A stretch of DNA of 64,000 bases. It comes from Candidatus Bathyarchaeia archaeon (GTDB lineage Archaea; Thermoproteota; Bathyarchaeia; Bathyarchaeales; Bathycorpusculaceae). Below, in pieces: positions 6,679 through 58,401 of the stretch. Every line of letters starts with the position of its first letter. The first letter of the stretch is position 1. The stretch covers positions 864,001 through 928,000 of the forward strand of contig JBEKKK010000001.1 in NCBI GenBank assembly GCA_050010755.1, given 5' to 3'. The notes under the pieces are model-generated. The model saw nothing but the letters and a program-made list of their open reading frames with translations. It did no database searches and was not told the DNA's origin. Both the position numbers and the translations under genes were made by a program.

Positions 6679-7185
6679 TTAGGGCGGAGGAGGCGGAGGG
6701 GGTGGAGGAGGCTGTGATGTGGCGGCAAACACGGTCTGTTTTACTGAAACCACCGTCGTTCCCGCAATGCGATCGGTGTATTTTTGGCGTTGATCTTTTC
6801 CAGGTGTAACGATTCCAAGTAGCCAGTCAATCAAGAGGAAAAGCCAATATATCTTGCTTATGTTGCGGATGAATGCTTTTTCAAACGTAACTTTACTGCC
6901 GTCTACCATTTGCACACGCAGACCTAAGATTTTTTTCCCCAGCGTTCCACCATAGTAAGCGTCCATAAACATGAAGTAAAAGAGTTCAAGTATCCCTAAG
7001 AGAAAGCCAAGTAGGAGGATAGGTCCCCACACGAAAAAGAGACCGCCGCCTAAGACGACAAATATTATCAAGATAGCGTATATGACGCCAGCTACTATGC
7101 CGATAATTATAGAGTCGATTATAAATGCGACGAGGCGTAAGAGCCAATGGTTCATATCTAACTGTGAACTGCTTCCTGTAGACAT
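6679..7185 (-). CDS. RDD family membrane protein
   Basis: RLVAFIID, GGTLGKKILGLRV, Q...DRIAGT.VV; poly-Pro tail. Confidence 0.92.
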   Translation of the reverse strand: MSTGSSSQLDMNHWLLRLVAFIIDSIIIGIVAGVIYAILIIFVVLGGGLFFVWGPILLLGFLLGILELFYFMFMDAYYGGTLGKKILGLRVQMVDGSKVTFEKAFIRNISKIYWLFLLIDWLLGIVTPGKDQRQKYTDRIAGTTVVSVKQTVFAATSQPPPPPPPPPP

Positions 7186-7585
7186 TTTTTCATCTCTATC
7201 CGTTATTTCATCGCAACTCGTTATTATTACTTGCGTTCTTTCCGCACAATCGAAGTTAACACGCTTGCGACAACCGAAATCAGGGAAATGTCGTCGTTAC
7301 CAAAGCCATCAAAAAGGCAACGCGGCCTCCCCCAAAAAAAGGCTCTTGAAGTTCCCAAGCGAGCAGAGTTCATTGCAATGAGCGGAATGCCAGCAAAGTC
7401 GCTGAACCCAACTTAAGCGTATGAAGTCGGCAGGATATGAAAAGCATATCAAGAGCCATAATCAAAATGCTCGGGGAAAACAGGATGGCAACGAACGATT
7501 CTAAAGGTTTTTCAAATGGGCGCATCGACTAGCCATTGAGGCCCCAATACTTAAAAGAACAAAACTGACGCGCAAGAGCAGCTGA

Positions 7586-8137
7586 TTAACCGCTCAGTTT
7601 TCGCGATACCTGCTTTTCAAGGTCGTCCTCGTCTATCTTGAAAGTTTCAGGTTCGTCCTTTTTGAGTATGGCCTTCAATTCTTTAGCCGCAAGTTGCGTG
7701 ACCAGTCGAAGCACTTCTCTTTTTGCGTTTTCAAGATGGTTTCGCAGCATCTTCTTGTCTTGGTACACGGCTCCTGCCAGTTGGCATATCCTGTCCATCT
7801 TTACGAACCATTCAATCTTTCCCGTCTTGAGGTTTACGTCAAAAGTGACGGGTCCTGCCACGCACGTTTCTGGTTTCACGGGGTGAATCAGGCATTTTTT
7901 TGTTTTCGTGTCATGAAACACGCAGTATCCGCCGGCTAAAAGCCTCGGAAAGGCATATCCTTTTCGCACGAAGGGGTTTTCGATAGATATTCTGTTCTCT
8001 TTCAAGTAGGCTTCTATGATTTTTCTGCGTTCAGACGTTACGGGTGGTGTCGTGTCGTTGCAGCAGGAATAACTGGTTCTGCAGTTGCTGCACACGTCGA
8101 AGAAGTTGCTCTGCCTGTTGTTTGCATGCTTATTCAA
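7586..8137 (-). CDS. YkgJ/CxxCxxCC family putative Fe-S or Zn cluster protein
   Basis: CSNC...CC, CVF, CLIHPVKPETC..GP. Confidence 0.85.
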   Translation of the reverse strand: MNKHANNRQSNFFDVCSNCRTSYSCCNDTTPPVTSERRKIIEAYLKENRISIENPFVRKGYAFPRLLAGGYCVFHDTKTKKCLIHPVKPETCVAGPVTFDVNLKTGKIEWFVKMDRICQLAGAVYQDKKMLRNHLENAKREVLRLVTQLAAKELKAILKKDEPETFKIDEDDLEKQVSRKLSG

Positions 8138-8160
8138 GTGTTAGTCTCCGTTTTCGAGAG

Positions 8161-9459
8161 CTAGAAGTAGGGTTGATTGTCCATAAGGCTTTCTGTGAGT
8201 TTTGAGTAGACGCTGACCACCGCTTCTTCAAAGTCTGTCCTTTGGGCCCTACGCAAGACTCTCTCGCGTATTAGATCTGAAAGGCTTCCTTGGTCTATTC
8301 TCTTCTTTACGATTGGAAGGTATTTTTTCTCTTCTGGCGAAGCGTTTTTCCATGCGATTTTGTAGAGGTAATGGCAGACTTCGCGTGCAGTTCGCCCGTT
8401 CGGGCTTTCCGTCGGCGCGTTCAGTCCCTTCGCTATGACGAAGTTGAAGTCGTTCACCAAGACCTCATGGGGCACGAGGTGCGTGTCATCGTTGAGCAAT
8501 CCTCTGAGTAGTGCTCTGATGTAACAGCTTATCGCGACATCCGATTTGATGCATTCCTGCTCGTCCATTACACGTATTTCGATTGCTTTTCTGTCAAACC
8601 TGAAGATTACGCCGCGAGAGTTGATCCATTCCTTGTTGAGGATTAGCTCGTCCGCGCCTGCATGGGCCATTTCAGCCGAATATCTCCAGATGATTTTCTT
8701 GTAGTACTCGCTGAAGGATGACACGTACTCCGGGACAATGTCGCCTGTGATCGAGGGTATTTCGCTTTGGTTCACCTTGTAGAAGTGTAACCTGTTGTCA
8801 ACATCTTCTCCGAATTTACCCTCGCAGATCGGAGAGGAGGCAGCGAACGCGGGCAGATAAGAGCAGATGTTAGCTAGCAGGTTGTGCATTTCTACGCCGT
8901 CCTTCTCGTTCGAATATGGGAGGTTCAGCTGGAAGCTTTGAATATTCAACCAGCCGTGCTGGTTAAGGTTGAACAGTTTGCCGTAAGCCTCGTAAATTTG
9001 GCGGTGGCGGTGCGACCAAATGGCTGTATCTGGGAGCCTCAGCAGAGGGTGCATTCCCGTCCCGAGTAGACTCGCCCGGCGTTTTCTGTGCAGAAAATCC
9101 GACATCACCAAGACCGCGTTAAACATACGTTCATCGAAGGCTTGAGGAGAGGTATAGGGCGCGTTGGGTCTTATTTCCATAACGTGCGATTGCAGCTCTT
9201 TTCCAAAGGTGAAGTCGCCACATTTTGCGGAATTGACTATACGACCATGGAAATCTTTTAGAATCTCATCAACAATTGGTAAAACTGTTAGGTCGTCGTC
9301 AACTACCGCAAATTCATGTTCTGGACCTAGAACCTCAAGGGTCTTGTACGTACTAGTTCCTCTTGGTTTTACTGTTTTCAAAGAATCGAATATAAGCCTG
9401 TGGATTTTCCTGTTCAACCCGCTGTCCATGTGAGGCGCTCCTGAAACCAGGAGATGCAC
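8161..9459 (-). CDS. glutamate-cysteine ligase family 2 (GCS2/YbdK-like) carboxylate-amine ligase
   Basis: GPEHEF, ELQ...E, GMHP, QLNL, SSP, R.G...RF...IEIR..D; start may be ATG at 9429. Confidence 0.85.
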   Translation of the reverse strand: MHLLVSGAPHMDSGLNRKIHRLIFDSLKTVKPRGTSTYKTLEVLGPEHEFAVVDDDLTVLPIVDEILKDFHGRIVNSAKCGDFTFGKELQSHVMEIRPNAPYTSPQAFDERMFNAVLVMSDFLHRKRRASLLGTGMHPLLRLPDTAIWSHRHRQIYEAYGKLFNLNQHGWLNIQSFQLNLPYSNEKDGVEMHNLLANICSYLPAFAASSPICEGKFGEDVDNRLHFYKVNQSEIPSITGDIVPEYVSSFSEYYKKIIWRYSAEMAHAGADELILNKEWINSRGVIFRFDRKAIEIRVMDEQECIKSDVAISCYIRALLRGLLNDDTHLVPHEVLVNDFNFVIAKGLNAPTESPNGRTAREVCHYLYKIAWKNASPEEKKYLPIVKKRIDQGSLSDLIRERVLRRAQRTDFEEAVVSVYSKLTESLMDNQPYF

Positions 9460-51066: not shown

Positions 51067-51516
51067 ATGAAGTTACGGGAACTGATGACCAAGAACGTAA
51101 TCACGATAGACAAAAACATGACGGTGCAACTGGCTGCGGGAACCATGAACAAGAAGAGAATAGGCTGCTTGGTGACCGTTGACAAAGAGGGAATCAAAGG
51201 AATCGTAACAGAGAGAGATCTACTCACGAGAGTCTTGGAAGCATGCAAAGACCCCAAGACAACCAAGGTCTCAGACGTTATGACCCAGAGCATTATTTTC
51301 GGGAATCCTGAAATGCAACTGGTTGAAGCTACACGCCTAATGTTTGAAAACGGAATCAAGAAACTGCCAATACTAGAAGACAACCAACTGGTCGGCTTGG
51401 TCACACTTACCGACATAGCTCGTGCGACAAGCTCTGACAGGAAGACTATGGATCTCATCGAAGCACTCTCAAACATGCACAAGGTCAGCTCATTACAAGC
51501 ACACACAACAACGTAG
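51067..51516 (+). CDS. CBS domain pair protein
   Basis: MTKNVIT...GIVTERD...VSDVMT...LPI...VGLVTLTD. Confidence 0.93.
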   Translation: MKLRELMTKNVITIDKNMTVQLAAGTMNKKRIGCLVTVDKEGIKGIVTERDLLTRVLEACKDPKTTKVSDVMTQSIIFGNPEMQLVEATRLMFENGIKKLPILEDNQLVGLVTLTDIARATSSDRKTMDLIEALSNMHKVSSLQAHTTT

Positions 51517-51704: not shown

Positions 51705-52010
51705 CTAGCCCAGCATATTGGCGACTTCTTCGAAAATGTGCAGAAAACTCTTTCCTTTCTTAGTCGTCCTGTAAACGATTCCTTTCTTCTCTCTTGATTC
51801 TTGCAACAGTTCTGATTTGGAAAGCAACGGCAGGTACTTTTGCGCCTGTTCAGAACTCAAGCCGACTTTGCACATCAGTTCCGTCTTCTTAACCCCACTC
51901 GTGGCAAGCAGCAAAATATCTGAGATTATGATAAACGGGTCTCTGCGACTGCGGGCACCGTCGACTCTCCAGGGAGGGAAAACGCTGCGTGTCAGCATCA
52001 CATCTATCAA
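51705..52010 (-). CDS. archaeal winged-helix regulator (HTH_45/DUF4364-like)
   Basis: RRDPFIIISDIL...KTELMCKVGLS...YRTTKKG; paralog of the 14011 gene. Start uncertain. Confidence 0.8.
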   Translation of the reverse strand: MIDVMLTRSVFPPWRVDGARSRRDPFIIISDILLLATSGVKKTELMCKVGLSSEQAQKYLPLLSKSELLQESREKKGIVYRTTKKGKSFLHIFEEVANMLG

Positions 52011-52345: not shown

Positions 52346-52675
52346 TCAGAGAAGTTCTGGAAAATACTTGAGCCAATCCCGACAGGATGCTCTGGTCGTC
52401 ATCTCAGTTGTGCGGAGAGCTAGAGCGACTTCTCGCTGAGTTTTCAAATTCCCCATATTTGATCCGAGGTGATAGAATAGTCCTGAGAGGATCCCTTTCT
52501 CGCTTTTTCCACTGAAAAAGGCAGGTCTTTTTTCGTAGGCTTTTTGAATTATCTTTGAAGCTCTGGTCGAAACAGTTGCTGCGATTGAAGGTTGATTCTG
52601 CCATGTTTTAGCTGCAAGGACCATCACTTTTTCAGGCGACAATCGTTTTGGAAGATAGCTTTCGGTTTTTTTCAT
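52346..52675 (-). CDS. truncated TFB/TFIIB-like protein (single C-terminal cyclin repeat with HTH)
   Basis: SGKSEKGILSGLFY...KTQREVALALRTTEMTTRA matches the TFB consensus GKxPxGxAAAxxY...TQxEVAxxxxVTEVTVR; no Zn ribbon or first cyclin repeat. Confidence 0.7.
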   Translation of the reverse strand: MKKTESYLPKRLSPEKVMVLAAKTWQNQPSIAATVSTRASKIIQKAYEKRPAFFSGKSEKGILSGLFYHLGSNMGNLKTQREVALALRTTEMTTRASCRDWLKYFPELL

Positions 52676-53000
52676 CTTTATTGTAGACCTCTCTGAGTTT
52701 CTTGACATGATTTTCAAACGATGATTTATCCTGCTTGTCAAACTTGATTTTCATCTCGGCGCATAAGGCTGCAAGTATAGTCTCTTCTAAAACTGCCGCG
52801 GCACCAAGAAGCTGTCCCCTTCCAGGGCCGAGGATCTTTCTGAGCTCTATGGAAAATGCGCTTGGTTTTGTTGGGATTTCATAGAAGGCGCACCCGTTTT
52901 TTTGCAGATAGTCGTAGATTATGCCCGCGTTTATGTCTCCGAAAACGTATCTGACGGTCTTGTCAATGACCTGTAATAAAAGGTCATCAAATTTGTCCAA
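52632..53000 (-). CDS. NitrOD5/DUF3227-like small helical protein
   Basis: IDKTVRYVFG.....IYDYL......EIPTKP..FS.ELRKILG...A.VLE..I, a pattern seen in archaeal signal-transduction loci; GGAGG RBS. Confidence 0.7.
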   Translation of the reverse strand: MDKFDDLLLQVIDKTVRYVFGDINAGIIYDYLQKNGCAFYEIPTKPSAFSIELRKILGPGRGQLLGAAAVLEETILAALCAEMKIKFDKQDKSSFENHVKKLREVYNKDEKNRKLSSKTIVA

Positions 53001-53301
53001 TCTTCAAGCCTCCTTCTGATCACTCGGCGCGTGCTAAGAACTCCAACTTGCATAACAAAATAGCTCAGAAAGCCAAATTTCGTTAAAGGAATGCATAAAG
53101 TCATACCTTCTCATCCCTGCCCTGTTCCCAGGTTCTTTCAATGCCACGATGTCCGTGAGACTTTTGATAAAATGTTCAGACAAATCTTTAGAAATCTTCG
53201 ACCACATGCCATCCTACTCCGAACAGGACTATGGACTGTCTTCCAGGTTTTATTTGACTTTCGGTCAAAAAAAATGCATAAGTATGATTGAAAGTGAAGA
53301 A

Positions 53302-54435
53302 TTACGCCGCTTTCAGGAAACGATTCACTGTAGACTGCAGCTTTTCTAAATGTGCCGCATGATCATACAGCCACTTGTTCTCCTTGAACAGTTGATAAGG
53401 AATCGTGTCTCTTTGTGCCTTAGCCATGTCCTGAATGACGTATTCGTAAGTGTTCAGGAATCCCGCCCTCACTAGCTTTGAAAGCGCTTGAACTAGATTC
53501 CTTAACTGTTGTCTTGGCAAATACACTTGGACAAGTAGCTGATTTCTGCCGTACACTTTCCCCACTGTTCTGACGAATGGTTTGTCCAGTAATGAGGAAG
53601 CGAATTTGGCAAGGTTGTCATAGTTGCTGAATACAAAACGGAAGAAATAGGTGTCTGGGGACAATCCTTTAAAATGGTCTGCTAGTATTTGGGGGCCTTC
53701 AAACATTTTCTCCTTCGTGATGTGGTTATCTATATGATACTTCACTCTTTGCAAGCTTATCCCAAGCATCCTGGCTATATCTTTCAACTTGATGGCACAA
53801 TTCTTTTCAAGTTCTTTCAGTATCATGATGTCTATCCAATCTGCCCTCTGTGGGTAATCGTCGGGATCTTTGAGTGTGTAAGGGAGCTCTTTCTTATTCA
53901 TAATCGCTTCTTTTAGCCATGAATCCCAGGAAAAGGTCCATTCTTCAGAGGTGTTGTCAAACCATGTGCTTGTCACATTTACATTTTGGAAGCAGGTGGA
54001 AAAGTAAAATTTGACGCTGCACATCGAATCTATCTGTTGAAGCTTTTCCAAAAACCCTTCAAATTCTTTTTCTCTTCCTGCGGGGATTCCGTATACCGCC
54101 AAGCATTTTGGGGACCCGACGCATTGACTCAAGTATAGCCAATAATCATTACATTTTAGGCATTCGTAAAGGAGTTCTTCATAACCTGGCTTTGACTCTG
54201 CAAAGACTGCGACTTTTCTGAGTCCGATGTTAGTATGGTAGATGTTTCCTTGGAGAAATAGGGAAAACTGAGAGCGCAGGTGGTTGATTCTGCGGCGGAG
54301 TGTCGCGTTCGGCATGTTAAGTTTGGCTGCGACTTTTGATGTGTTTTTTGGGCCGCATAGTGCCAATCCTTCGAGTACCTCTACATCGATGCTGCGGACC
54401 TTATTTTGCTCGTTGGATTGCACGCGTTTGATCAA
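53302..54435 (-). CDS. tandem Lrp/AsnC-type regulator (HTH-RAM-HTH-RAM)
   Basis: IDVEVLEGL...SKVAAKL.MP..TLRRRI...IGL and IDIMILKEL.KN....LKDIARMLGISLQRVKYH, each followed by a beta-alpha domain. Confidence 0.82.
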   Translation of the reverse strand: MIKRVQSNEQNKVRSIDVEVLEGLALCGPKNTSKVAAKLNMPNATLRRRINHLRSQFSLFLQGNIYHTNIGLRKVAVFAESKPGYEELLYECLKCNDYWLYLSQCVGSPKCLAVYGIPAGREKEFEGFLEKLQQIDSMCSVKFYFSTCFQNVNVTSTWFDNTSEEWTFSWDSWLKEAIMNKKELPYTLKDPDDYPQRADWIDIMILKELEKNCAIKLKDIARMLGISLQRVKYHIDNHITKEKMFEGPQILADHFKGLSPDTYFFRFVFSNYDNLAKFASSLLDKPFVRTVGKVYGRNQLLVQVYLPRQQLRNLVQALSKLVRAGFLNTYEYVIQDMAKAQRDTIPYQLFKENKWLYDHAAHLEKLQSTVNRFLKAA

Positions 54436-54499
54436 GGACGGTCTGACTACTTGTTGTCACAATGGATTTTTAGCCCTTTCCCTTGATGCTTTGATGGTT

Positions 54500-54727
54500 C
54501 TATGGGAAGCCTCCACCGCCCACTGGGTCGCCGCCGTTAGGATTTGTGCCGTTCACTGGGTCGTCGACGAATGTCAGGGTTGGACTGTTTCCGTTATGAC
54601 TGTGACCTGCAGAATCGCTGCCCAATGCGCGAGTTGCATGCGAAGCTGTGGAAATCATCGTAACGGCAAAAATCGCTAAGAACAGCAAAACGGAAAGCAA
54701 TAAGAACTTACCAAAATTCAGTTTCAT
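54500..54727 (-). CDS. 75-aa secreted pre-pro-peptide ending DDPVNGTNPNGGDPVGGGGFP
   Basis: Strong RBS GGAGGTG 5-6 nt before ATG 54727; TTTTATTTT TATA-like box at 54778-54786; K-rich n-region + hydrophobic h-region + ASHA/TRA cleavage site; low-complexity spacer. Confidence 0.8.
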   Translation of the reverse strand: MKLNFGKFLLLSVLLFLAIFAVTMISTASHATRALGSDSAGHSHNGNSPTLTFVDDPVNGTNPNGGDPVGGGGFP

Positions 54728-54875
54728 GTTTTTCACCTCCATTCACTTTTGGTCAAAAAACTGGTTGAGTTCGATTGAAAATAAAAGTTGTGTGAAAGCA
54801 GCATTCAGAATTTGAAATCACCGCTCGCGCTAATCATAAATACGAGTTGTTGGGGCAGTTTGTTCTTGACGTGGG

Positions 54876-57894: not shown

Positions 57895-58401
57895 ATGGAG
57901 AAAATGAAAACCATCGATAACAGACTCTTGGGTGAGCTACTGAAGAATAGTCGCAGGAGTGACAGAGAATTGGCCAAGGTTCTCGGAGTGTCTCAACCCA
58001 CTGTCACCAGGAGAAGGACAGCTCTTGAAAAGGACTTCATTGATGGGTACACGGCGATACCAAAATGGGAAAAAGTCGGTTTTGAATTAATTGCGTTCAC
58101 CTTTGTAAAAACCAAGCTCAAGTATGCCAAGCCTGAAGTGAGGAAAGCAGGTTTCAAGAGAGTGGAAGAGTGGATGATGAACCACGCCAATGTTATCTTA
58201 ACCATAGACGGACAGGGAATGGGGTGGGATGCAGTCTTTGTTTCATTCCACAAGAACTATTCAGCCTTTGCAGAGTTCATGAGAGAGCATGACAGTGAGC
58301 TTTCAGATAATTTGATTGAAAGCTCAAGCTTCATCGCAGACATTAACCCGATAACTATTAGAAAAGCATTTCACCTGAAGTATCTGGCAGATGCGAAATA
58401 G
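57895..58401 (+). CDS. Lrp/AsnC family transcriptional regulator
   Basis: D..LLGELLKNSRRSDRELAKVLGVSQPTVTRR...IDGYT.IP...KVG. Confidence 0.92.
   Translation: MEKMKTIDNRLLGELLKNSRRSDRELAKVLGVSQPTVTRRRTALEKDFIDGYTAIPKWEKVGFELIAFTFVKTKLKYAKPEVRKAGFKRVEEWMMNHANVILTIDGQGMGWDAVFVSFHKNYSAFAEFMREHDSELSDNLIESSSFIADINPITIRKAFHLKYLADAK

Follow-up and report, generated by a model that had tools for sequence, protein, structure and literature searches.

A candidate peptide–receptor cassette in Bathyarchaeia pairing a putative secreted peptide with a tandem Lrp/AsnC-type regulator

Introduction

The closest described systems are those of the RRNPP group, for which we compared Rap/Phr, NprR/NprX, PlcR/PapR, Rgg/SHP, PrgX and the phage arbitrium pair AimR/AimP. 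As outlined in PMC10075063, their signature is a propeptide of 10–100 aa with a Sec signal and maturation outside the cell, encoded next to a receptor of 250–500 aa that binds the peptide through tetratricopeptide repeats (TPR). Both minimal precursors and precursors with repeated cores are described there. As far as we searched, in abstracts and in PMC10075063 and PMC11442133, descriptions of peptide communication with an intracellular receptor are limited to Bacillota, their phages and plasmids. We found no archaeal case in this literature, in line with the original prediction for the locus described here, which knew of no such system in archaea.

The locus lies in a 64,000-nucleotide stretch of contig JBEKKK010000001.1 from a Candidatus Bathyarchaeia archaeon; this whole stretch is referred to as the window. 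With a propeptide of 75 aa, a candidate receptor of 377 aa and a gap of 64 nt (range −50 to 191 bp), the gene pair falls within the sizes outlined for RRNPP systems.

Results

Organisation of the gene pair

All cassette genes are on the minus strand, in the region 52346–54790 of the window (Table 1). On re-reading the coordinates we confirmed the predicted 75-aa ORF with its TATA-like box, GGAGGTG site, signal-like N-terminus and duplicated D-P-V (D56–V58 and D67–V69, the last residue being P75), as well as the regulator ORF 64 nt downstream on the same strand. An alternative upstream ATG at 54742 gives an 80-aa product. The same T-rich box is found at equal distance upstream of the peptide ORFs of related loci, and among 57 related peptide ORFs a crude regular expression detected a Shine-Dalgarno-like site ahead of an in-frame start in 50. 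No T-run terminator was present in the 64-nt spacer. A clade-conserved A-rich element (54466–54473) lies about 30 nt ahead of the regulator start and could act as a promoter of its own for a leaderless regulator mRNA. A repeat search of the window's peptide promoter revealed no inverted repeat as a candidate operator. Palindromes over the TATA box were seen in the promoters of relatives.

Using our own heuristics for hydrophobicity and the −3/−1 positions, we assigned to the peptide a small-x-small site preceded by a basic n-region and a hydrophobic core. The core is long and may also be that of an uncleaved membrane anchor. The peptide had no family match above cut-off in Pfam or NCBIfam, and five of seven candidates from the databases were homologues.

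Table 1. Features of the cassette (window coordinates)
Feature	Coordinates	Strand	Remarks
TATA-like box T4AT4 of peptide gene	54778..54786	-	51-59 nt upstream of ATG
Shine-Dalgarno-like GGAGGTG	54734..54740	-	6 nt before ATG at 54727
Pro-peptide ORF, 75 aa + stop	54500..54727	-	stop codon 54500-54502; 4 close homologues, 67-73% identity; syntenic counterparts
Signal-peptide-like segment, residues 1-31	54635..54727	-	K2/K7, hydrophobic core, S-H-A before T32
First, degenerate motif copy D55-G60, then N-G-T sequon	54548..54565	-	
C-terminal motif G66-P75 (G-D-P-V-G-G-G-G-F-P), predicted ligand	54503..54532	-	invariant columns; predicted interface
64-nt spacer, peptide ORF to regulator	54436..54499	-	spacer comparison
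Tandem Lrp/AsnC-type protein, 377 aa	53302..54435	-	start codon could be a few codons further in
wHTH 1, residues 15-57	54265..54393	-	model secondary structure; aligned by the profile with PH0061 and LrpC from residue 4-8 on
RAM-like domain 1, residues 58-151	53983..54264	-	predicted peptide contacts 58-67, 94-101, 114, 149
Trp-rich linker/extension, residues 152-198	53842..53982	-	W158, W166, W170, W173 (near-)invariant
wHTH 2, AsnC-type, residues 199-240	53716..53841	-	PF13404, PF13412; predicted contacts K207, E210, K211
RAM-like domain 2, residues 241-342	53410..53715	-	predicted contacts 249, 251, 289, 290, 303, 340-342
C-terminal extension, residues 343-377	53305..53409	-	predicted contacts 343-349; near-invariant T344, I345, Y347

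Conservation of the pair and its surroundings

The peptide ORF and the regulator are a conserved gene pair. In a formal test, we scored ORFs with a signal-like N-terminus and an acidic Pro/Gly-rich tail that lie on the same strand and end 7–80 nt upstream. Such an ORF was found at 28 of the 34 regulator homologue loci that had upstream DNA, drawn from 61 related genomes; four further loci carried a variant peptide ORF or a copy frameshifted at a homopolymer, and two had none. The baseline in the window's own genome was 6 of 1966 long ORFs (0.3%), and the 137,715 bp of locus DNA, read on both strands, contained one other such ORF. Inspection by eye identified an upstream ORF of this kind in all 38 of the 38 further Bathyarchaeia MAG loci with upstream DNA, as expected from the original prediction that regulator homologues would have signal-peptide ORFs as neighbours. 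Under a laxer criterion, which also catches some spurious ORFs, pairing was seen for 15/15 regulators with at least 55% identity, 42/44 at 35–55%, 10/19 at 25–35% and 1/13 below 25%. The small ORF keeps its position, strand and architecture at dozens of loci, including some whose regulators are only about 26% identical. Among the 21 loci of more distant regulators outside the order (L096–L116), a comparable upstream ORF was found in L102 alone; the pairing is a property of a subfamily and not of every tandem Lrp protein.

Genes downstream of the regulator vary from locus to locus. The 122-aa ORF and the TFB-like ORF, which the original prediction had listed after the regulator, are not conserved beside regulator homologues, and we therefore left them out of the cassette. 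The 'NitrOD5-like' label of the former found no backing, as no Pfam or NCBIfam model matched at E ≤ 0.1 except a chance-level LisH; the proposed mini-TFB is weakly supported, with a Pfam TFIIB match at E 0.018 and NCBIfam PRK00423 at 26.6 bits (cut-off 384). In the loci examined, we saw no conserved modifying enzyme, protease or dedicated exporter near the cassette, consistent with the earlier remark that no modifying enzyme is adjacent.

We detected no paralogue of either gene in the window's own genome. Several other genomes carry two or three paralogous cassettes that differ in tail class, such as L003, L032 and L033 in G003. One viral contig has the cassette, and three scans of viral contigs each returned that same contig. 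In the window and at three cellular loci (L121, L123, L124), the neighbours are ordinary chromosomal genes and include no capsid or terminase genes, so these cellular cassettes are not obviously proviral. The window's own genome encodes three Opp/Dpp-type binding proteins (PF00496); such importers are common, and their presence is not specific evidence.

The precursor combines a putative export signal with a conserved tail motif

Across the family, only the putative export signal and a tail motif of about 10 residues, G-[DE]-[PE]-[VI]-x-[GP]-x-x-P, are kept. In 19 clade members the invariant columns are G66, D67, V69, G71, G72 and P75, and no others. Over 194 pairs, the last 12 residues showed an identity of 0.50, compared with 0.29 in the spacer, 0.38 in the signal zone and 0.62 in the regulator, so the C-terminus is indeed more conserved than the spacer, as had been anticipated. 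Related precursors are mostly 40–105 aa long, with outliers of 118 and 146 aa (longest ORFs), and their spacers vary from 0 to about 100 residues. In the shortest precursors (43–57 aa), a putative signal peptide with a small-x-small end is followed directly by a 9–13-residue motif. The core motif is present in two or three copies in L006, L007, L026 and the window's peptide.

In 9 of the 19 clade peptides, the motif has 5–15 extra residues behind it, which carry N-x-S/T sequons. Such peptides could not place a free C-terminus in the pocket predicted below unless the tail is trimmed, and from sequence the sequon-bearing extension could point to a glycosylated surface peptide. Reading the peptide against the general definitions of two other signals, we ruled out a class III (pilin-type) signal as well as an archaeosortase sorting signal (PGF-CTERM and the like). 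In the latter a C-terminal membrane helix and a basic tail come after the motif, whereas this product ends at the motif's last proline with no hydrophobic segment after it.

The regulator is predicted to contain two HTH–RAM units

The original prediction assigned two HTH+RAM units to the regulator. In Pfam, the second HTH alone is above cut-off (PF13412, 40.9 bits, cut-off 21.9; PF13404, 32.5 bits, cut-off 27); the first HTH falls below the cut-offs and the RAM model PF01037 has no match in the protein. Both units were recovered by a family profile together with an AlphaFold model and fold matches. The profile aligns the first HTH with PH0061 (E 3e-5) and LrpC (E 1e-4), matches both halves to whole Lrp/FFRP chains and extends across the RAM region (regulator 192–326 with 9–140 of 7fby). 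The model (pLDDT 94.3, pTM 0.90) has two units of an HTH plus beta-alpha-beta-beta-alpha-beta, and Foldseek matched it to whole Lrp chains (TMt 0.61–0.73). The best full-length match was the siroheme decarboxylase NirDL (4ch7; E 1.4e-9, TMq 0.54, TMt 0.64). Identity between the halves and known regulators is 18–21%. We did not detect any TPR family at E ≤ 0.1 in Pfam, and model and fold search gave HTH+RAM units alone. Neither a signal peptide nor a membrane segment is present in the regulator.

The peptide tail is predicted to dock between the RAM domains

Modelling of regulator and peptide together gave a complex score of 0.86, whereas the best of three controls scored 0.00. Peptide residues 63–75 make up the whole predicted interface, and the predicted site is the cleft between the two RAM domains, as the original prediction of a double-RAM receptor would have it. 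On the regulator side the interface includes the near-invariant residues H67, W99, Y101, E210, R342, T344, I345 and Y347. Among 80 solved complexes, 58 attained this mark, against 2 among 110 mismatched pairs; the counts are rough because our own alignments were used. To our knowledge there is no solved Lrp–peptide complex, which makes it unlikely that the score reflects a memorised structure. Contact agreement in the complex runs was at least 46% and partner pLDDT at least 45; the peptide chain itself is modelled at low confidence (pLDDT 45–46).

Predicted contact positions were not more conserved than the rest (0.64 vs 0.60, permutation p 0.15). The proposed co-variation between peptide and pocket was not borne out either: predicted contacts showed no excess co-variation with peptide class (MI/H 0.301 vs 0.274, p 0.13). 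In L018, one of the two loci that lack a peptide ORF, near-invariant pocket positions of the regulator are changed (Y101H, T344P).

Discussion

We consider it about an even call that the locus is a two-gene peptide–receptor cassette, RRNPP-like in design and with a non-homologous receptor. The 75-aa product would be exported via Sec and its signal peptide removed, and a short C-terminal peptide with G-D-P-V-x-G-G-x-x-P would be released outside the cell. This peptide would then be re-imported, probably by an oligopeptide ABC importer, and bind the RAM–RAM cleft of the adjacent tandem regulator, against helix 1 of the second HTH. Binding would alter the DNA binding or assembly of the regulator and hence transcription of a putative regulon, possibly in dependence on cell density. 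These results support, in silico, the receptor–ligand pairing that the original prediction put forward; its further proposal, quorum sensing, is an inference. The tests that were run on the signalling idea did not refute it.

One explanation, which we regard as unlikely but the most serious competitor, is that peptide and regulator do not interact. The former would then be secreted or membrane-anchored in its own right, and the latter would control its expression in response to another ligand. Candidates are a bacteriocin-like, surface, glycosylated or metal-binding peptide on the one side and, for example, an amino acid on the other. Lrp RAM domains normally bind amino acids, as in their solved complexes, and the negative co-variation test is what this explanation would lead one to expect. 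Cys and His near the motif in many homologues also speak for it, as do the sequons after the motif (9/19) and a weak similarity to YxzE-like bacteriocins in Pfam (PF25184). The last of these reached 17.6 bits, far under the cut-off of 40, and we rejected this assignment. The complex score and its controls argue against a lack of binding, as does an interface confined to the conserved tail. A conserved 10-residue tail behind a freely varying spacer is also unusual for a structural or antimicrobial peptide, and the pocket changes in L018 accompany the absence of the peptide ORF.

If the products do bind, they might do so without any signalling between cells. The regulator would bind the tail of the unexported precursor inside the producer cell, providing secretion-coupled or autoregulatory feedback. 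The predicted interface fits this equally well, both proteins are made side by side, the regulator lacks a signal peptide and a membrane segment, and neither importer nor processing protease is needed. We give it a somewhat smaller chance than the absence of binding. Against it, export signals are kept family-wide, and minimal precursors consist of a signal peptide and a 9-mer. Repeated cores and clade-specific tail classes are easier to understand with a released, specific signal, and the sequons after the motif suggest that the tail is exposed outside the cell.

It is improbable that the pair is RiPP-like, with a Pro-flanked core that is cut out and possibly cyclised or modified, and with the Lrp-fold protein as a peptide-binding maturation scaffold or enzyme in place of a transcription factor. 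Prolines do bracket the core, some precursors (L006, L007, L026) are multi-core, the predicted complex has the protein gripping the core, and NirDL, the best full-length fold match, is an Lrp-fold enzyme. Identity to NirDL is 7–8%, however, and no siroheme-decarboxylase-type Pfam family was matched; both HTHs resemble the usual DNA-binding motif of the AsnC type, and each half matches regulators. A Sec signal would be unusual on a RiPP precursor, and no maturation or export gene is conserved nearby. That the small ORF is a chance open frame, as its short length, lack of a family match above cut-off and few database homologues might suggest, is refuted in practice by the synteny counts over a baseline of 0.3%; its conserved architecture and the strong Shine-Dalgarno-like site and TATA-like box also speak against it.

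Returning to the peptide–receptor cassette, we hold it somewhat short of even that Bathyarchaeia and at least one head-tailed virus that infects them signal from cell to cell with secreted oligopeptides read by an RRNPP-independent double Lrp/RAM receptor, in tail-specific orthogonal channels. If so, peptide quorum sensing would be known in Archaea for the first time, as would a peptide ligand for an Lrp-family protein, and peptides would join amino acids among the ligands of this widespread family. Paralogous cassettes with distinct tails would be orthogonal channels within one genome, the viral copy possibly an archaeal-virus counterpart of arbitrium, and the propeptide-plus-receptor design would have evolved convergently. 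Bathyarchaeia, abundant and uncultured, play a central part in the carbon turnover of sediments and peat. A signal that is encoded in the genome and can be synthesised, together with a soluble receptor, would provide a direct handle on their regulation and might aid cultivation.

Comparison with known systems

RiPP systems with a winged-helix RRE resemble the cassette in that a precursor, in some cases multi-core, adjoins a protein that, by prediction, holds on to one particular part of the chain. Here, in contrast, the recognised part is the C-terminal core and not the leader, the precursor bears a putative Sec-type signal, and the cassette has no conserved modifying enzyme nearby.

Among solved structures NirDL, considered with AhbA–AhbB, alone is a tandem Lrp-fold chain, and it also gave the best full-length Foldseek match (4ch7, 4czc). 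It differs in sequence, with no matching sequence family, and it is an enzyme rather than a regulator; no haem-synthesis genes are found in the cassette neighbourhood.

As in Lrp/AsnC regulators (LrpA 1i1g, PH0140 7fby/9w4v, PH0061 2dbb, ST1022), an AsnC-type wHTH precedes a RAM-type domain in both halves, and the ligand is predicted at a RAM–RAM interface. In contrast to a regulator with one unit of about 150 aa that binds amino acids and DNA, the cassette protein joins two units in a 377-aa chain, each with an extra Trp/Tyr-rich extension and with PF01037 unmatched, and the predicted ligand is a peptide instead of an amino acid.

From RRNPP systems the cassette differs in its receptor, which is tandem Lrp/AsnC (HTH+RAM) without TPR, in its hosts, which are Bathyarchaeia and not Bacillota or their mobile elements, and in its Gly/Pro-rich 9–10-mer motif; it is proposed here from sequence and models. 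As outlined for RRNPP and arbitrium, however, the propeptide gene directly adjoins the gene of a cytoplasmic (here candidate) receptor, the putative N-terminal export signal is basic and hydrophobic, and the active part is C-terminal (here by prediction). The likeness extends to intragenic repeats of the core, several paralogous pairs per genome and at least one viral copy.

Gene organization of the cassette

The pairing of a small peptide ORF with a tandem Lrp/AsnC regulator gene is, with near certainty, a real and conserved two-gene module. All of its features lie on the minus strand (see table). The peptide begins with a basic n-region (K2, K7), after which come a long hydrophobic core and an S-H-A site preceding T32. 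This signal-like segment is followed by a Ser/Gly/Asn/His-rich spacer and two D-P-V motifs, the second of which (G66-P75) is the end of the protein. Reading of the window confirmed the small ORF with signal-like N-terminus and duplicated D-P-V that had been claimed upstream of the regulator. The triplet N59-G60-T61 lies between the two motif copies.

Features of the peptide-regulator cassette in the window
Feature	Position	Strand	Description
TATA-like box (T4AT4)	54778-54786	-	Promoter of peptide ORF
GGAGGTG	54734-54740	-	Precedes ATG of peptide ORF
Peptide ORF	54500-54727	-	75 aa, counted from the ATG after GGAGGTG
A-rich element	54466-54473	-	About 30 nt before regulator start; clade-conserved, also in equivalent spacers
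Regulator ORF	53302-54435	-	377 aa; starts 64 nt downstream of peptide ORF

The regulator start is not preceded by a Shine-Dalgarno sequence, and the arrangement suggests that the gene may have a separate promoter and a leaderless mRNA. At four other loci around regulator homologues, inverted repeats or palindromes overlap the peptide gene's TATA box as candidate operators (L048, 845-888; L062, 941-986; L066, 940-983; L067, 997-1040); the window's own peptide promoter has no palindrome.

Conservation of the gene pair

Regulator homologues were present in 33 of 61 related genomes. We counted 34 loci, including the window's own, with at least 200 nt of upstream DNA and at least 25% regulator identity; L015, L028, L030 and L039 had too little upstream DNA and were left out. 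Two of the counted loci (L021 and L033) are near-identical, and related genomes are not independent. A locus was scored if a same-strand ORF of 35-150 aa ended -60 to +150 nt from the regulator start and carried a hydrophobic 13-mer (mean Kyte-Doolittle at least 1.8) with K or R ahead of it; its last 14 residues had to include one or more Pro, four or more Pro plus Gly, and one or more Asp or Glu. Such an ORF was found at 28 of the 34 loci. As a baseline, it preceded 6 of 1966 ORFs (150 aa or longer) of the genome from which the window comes, the cassette itself being one of the six. The scan called for by the original prediction thus recovered small signal-peptide ORFs beside the regulator homologues. 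Only one other ORF with these properties occurs on the two strands of the locus DNA (137,715 bp).

L013 and L036 each have an ORF that is signal-like and ends in an acidic-Pro tail, with too few Gly and Pro residues to be scored. At L010 and L011, a frameshift in an A-run or A/T-run interrupts the peptide ORF and puts the tail motif into another frame beyond the homopolymer; decay, slippage or an assembly error could account for it. In L018 and L037, which belong to the same genus, a nucleoside-phosphorylase-like gene lies upstream of the regulator in place of the peptide ORF. No peptide ORF was found upstream of four regulator paralogues at 20-23% identity.

An independent collection of named MAG contigs gave 39 loci, at least 8 of which duplicate loci of the first set, and a peptide-type ORF was seen by eye at all 38 with upstream DNA. 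Four of the 39 carry labels other than Bathyarchaeia or Bathyarchaeota: one 'Acidoferrum', two 'Nitrososphaeria' and one 'Thermoproteota'. L057 (contig DASPTR010000002.1), labelled Candidatus Acidoferrum, has a typical Bathyarchaeia cassette with 60% regulator identity and is probably mis-binned.

After de-duplication, 91 unique regulators had upstream DNA. With a laxer criterion, which admits some spurious ORFs, pairing was found for 15/15 regulators at 55% identity or more, 42/44 at 35-55%, 10/19 at 25-35% and 1/13 below 25%. Tandem-Lrp relatives (E<=1e-30) occur in 55 of 401 genomes of the wider phylum. Among 21 loci checked outside the window's order, only L102 had a comparable upstream ORF, and the pairing is therefore the mark of a subfamily. 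A single in-frame TGA or TAG is present in the matches to several distant regulator homologues (G310, G042:C24, G196, G098, G151, G128, G066 and others, G numbers being genomes), and in genus g79 five of the seven genomes with a regulator match show one TGA each.

Conservation within the peptide

In 19 members of the window's clade, only G66, D67, V69, G71, G72 and P75 are invariant, and the spacer varies freely in sequence and length. Over 194 cassette pairs with regulators 50-95% identical (mean 0.62), peptide identity was 0.33 overall. By segment it was 0.38 (signal zone), 0.29 (spacer) and 0.50 (last 12 residues), so the C-terminus is better conserved than the spacer, the comparison posed at the outset. 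Tail identity exceeded spacer identity in 156 of these pairs, which are not independent.

The family-wide tail consensus is G-[DE]-[PE]-[VIM]-x-[GP]-x-x-P, with classes specific to clades. In genomes with several regulator paralogues, such as G003, each paralogue adjoins a different tail class. Two to three tandem core copies are present in L006, L007 and L026. The shortest precursors (43-57 aa) consist of a signal peptide ending in A/V-x-A and, at once, a 9- to 13-residue motif, which signal peptidase by itself would free.

Regulator fold and predicted complex

Pfam detected an AsnC-type HTH above cut-off at residues 199-236 and a weaker HTH signal at 29-54; it gave no RAM match. With a profile built from 43 family members, both halves match whole Lrp/FFRP chains. 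The AlphaFold model (pLDDT 94.3, pTM 0.90) contains two HTH plus RAM-like units, each followed by a Trp/Tyr-rich extension. Foldseek matched the halves to Lrp/AsnC regulators and the whole chain, at 7-8% identity, to NirDL, an enzyme with a tandem Lrp fold.

In one controlled prediction, with the regulator and peptide residues 32-75 each given as an alignment, the complex scored 0.86 (runs 0.86, 0.87 and 0.82), and the best of three controls scored 0.00. Among solved complexes, 58 of 80 reach this mark, and among mismatched pairs 2 of 110; these counts are only rough because we used our own alignments. Contact agreement between runs is 46% or more. With a partner pLDDT of 45 or more, the model leaves the fold of the peptide itself uncertain. 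The complex modelling that had been proposed thus places the tail at the interface: on the peptide side the confident interface comprises residues 63-75 only. They are predicted to contact strands of both RAM domains (58-67, 94-101, 249-251, 289-290, 303), helix 1 of the second HTH (207, 210, 211) and residues 340-349. Among the predicted contacts, H67, W99, Y101, E210, R342, T344, I345 and Y347 are near-invariant and others vary by clade. Contact positions were overall not more conserved than the rest (0.64 vs 0.60, p 0.15), and the expected peptide/RAM co-variation did not appear, as they track peptide class no better than other positions (p 0.13). The prediction supports tail-regulator binding without demonstrating it, and we consider direct binding likely.

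Nine of the 19 clade peptides (L050-L058) have a short tail after the motif with one or two N-x-S/T sequons, which the modelled pocket could accommodate only after trimming. Such a tail may instead indicate a glycosylated surface peptide.

Viral copy, neighbouring genes and import

A full cassette lies at ~6797-8190 (-) on an IMG/VR contig of 12,287 bp (L119; CheckV completeness 15%), the sole match in three viral-contig scans, the two later of which added none. Its precursor is 68 aa with a P-I-D-type tail and its regulator 387 aa at 40% identity. On one side of the cassette is a weak terminase-like gene, on the other a capsid module encoding a cement protein and an HK97-type capsid protein (PF05065, E 3.8e-8; phrog_267, E 1.8e-12). 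The contig, from a head-tailed virus, also has a weak protease-like gene. In the window and at three other cellular loci, the cassette is set in ordinary chromosomal DNA.

Downstream genes vary between loci (PadR-like, Zn-ribbon, unrelated). In the window, Pfam/NCBIfam searches did not support 'NitrOD5-like' for the ORF after the regulator and only weakly supported 'mini-TFB'. Window neighbours at 57895-58401 (+), 51705-52010 (-), 51067-51516 (+) and 52346-52741 (-) include an AsnC-type HTH protein, an Sso10a-like wHTH (NF053610, 64.6 bits), a CBS-pair protein and a short ORF in which a single TFB-like cyclin repeat is recognizable. Elsewhere, a Cys-rich Zn-ribbon protein (~108-122 aa) is found downstream of the regulator in L004, L006, L007 and L027 and, divergent upstream of the cassette, on the viral contig (L117, 399-767). 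In L003/L124 (9110-9517), L025 and L026, the next gene after the tandem Lrp gene encodes a PadR-like regulator (PF03551, E 5e-8 in L124). A conserved Glu/Lys-rich ORF of ~52-57 aa with an I-P-W-L motif lies ~600-730 nt upstream of the regulator in L003, L008 and L024. In G003, an ABC-2-type transporter pair (L124, 12249-13963, +) is oriented divergently to the peptide gene, ~1.3 kb upstream of it; no such pair was seen in the window.

The window's own genome encodes three Opp/Dpp-type binding proteins, so an uptake route exists, although this is not specific evidence. The regulator could alternatively sense the unexported precursor inside the cell, a reading against which the family-wide conservation of the export signal counts. 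The small protein could also be a regulated secreted product that does not bind the regulator, a reading that accommodates the sequons and faces the predicted tail interface. A RiPP-like maturation system is the third alternative.

Comparison with known systems

The best-supported reading is a propeptide-receptor cassette working like RRNPP or arbitrium (AimR/AimP) systems; cell-to-cell signalling by it is plausible, if unproven, at slightly less than even chances. At the level of abstracts, we found neither an archaeal peptide-receptor system nor a peptide-binding Lrp protein in the literature, and cases may exist in print. PMC10075063 gives the RRNPP/arbitrium signature as five criteria: a small propeptide, a Sec signal, a receptor of 250-500 aa, gene adjacency and a TPR receptor. 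The cassette shares the small propeptide, the receptor size and the adjacency; as for the Sec signal, the peptide shows sequence features compatible with one. Pfam matched no TPR family to the regulator (E<=0.1), and the cassette therefore falls outside the RRNPP family, as an analogue on a tandem Lrp/RAM scaffold.
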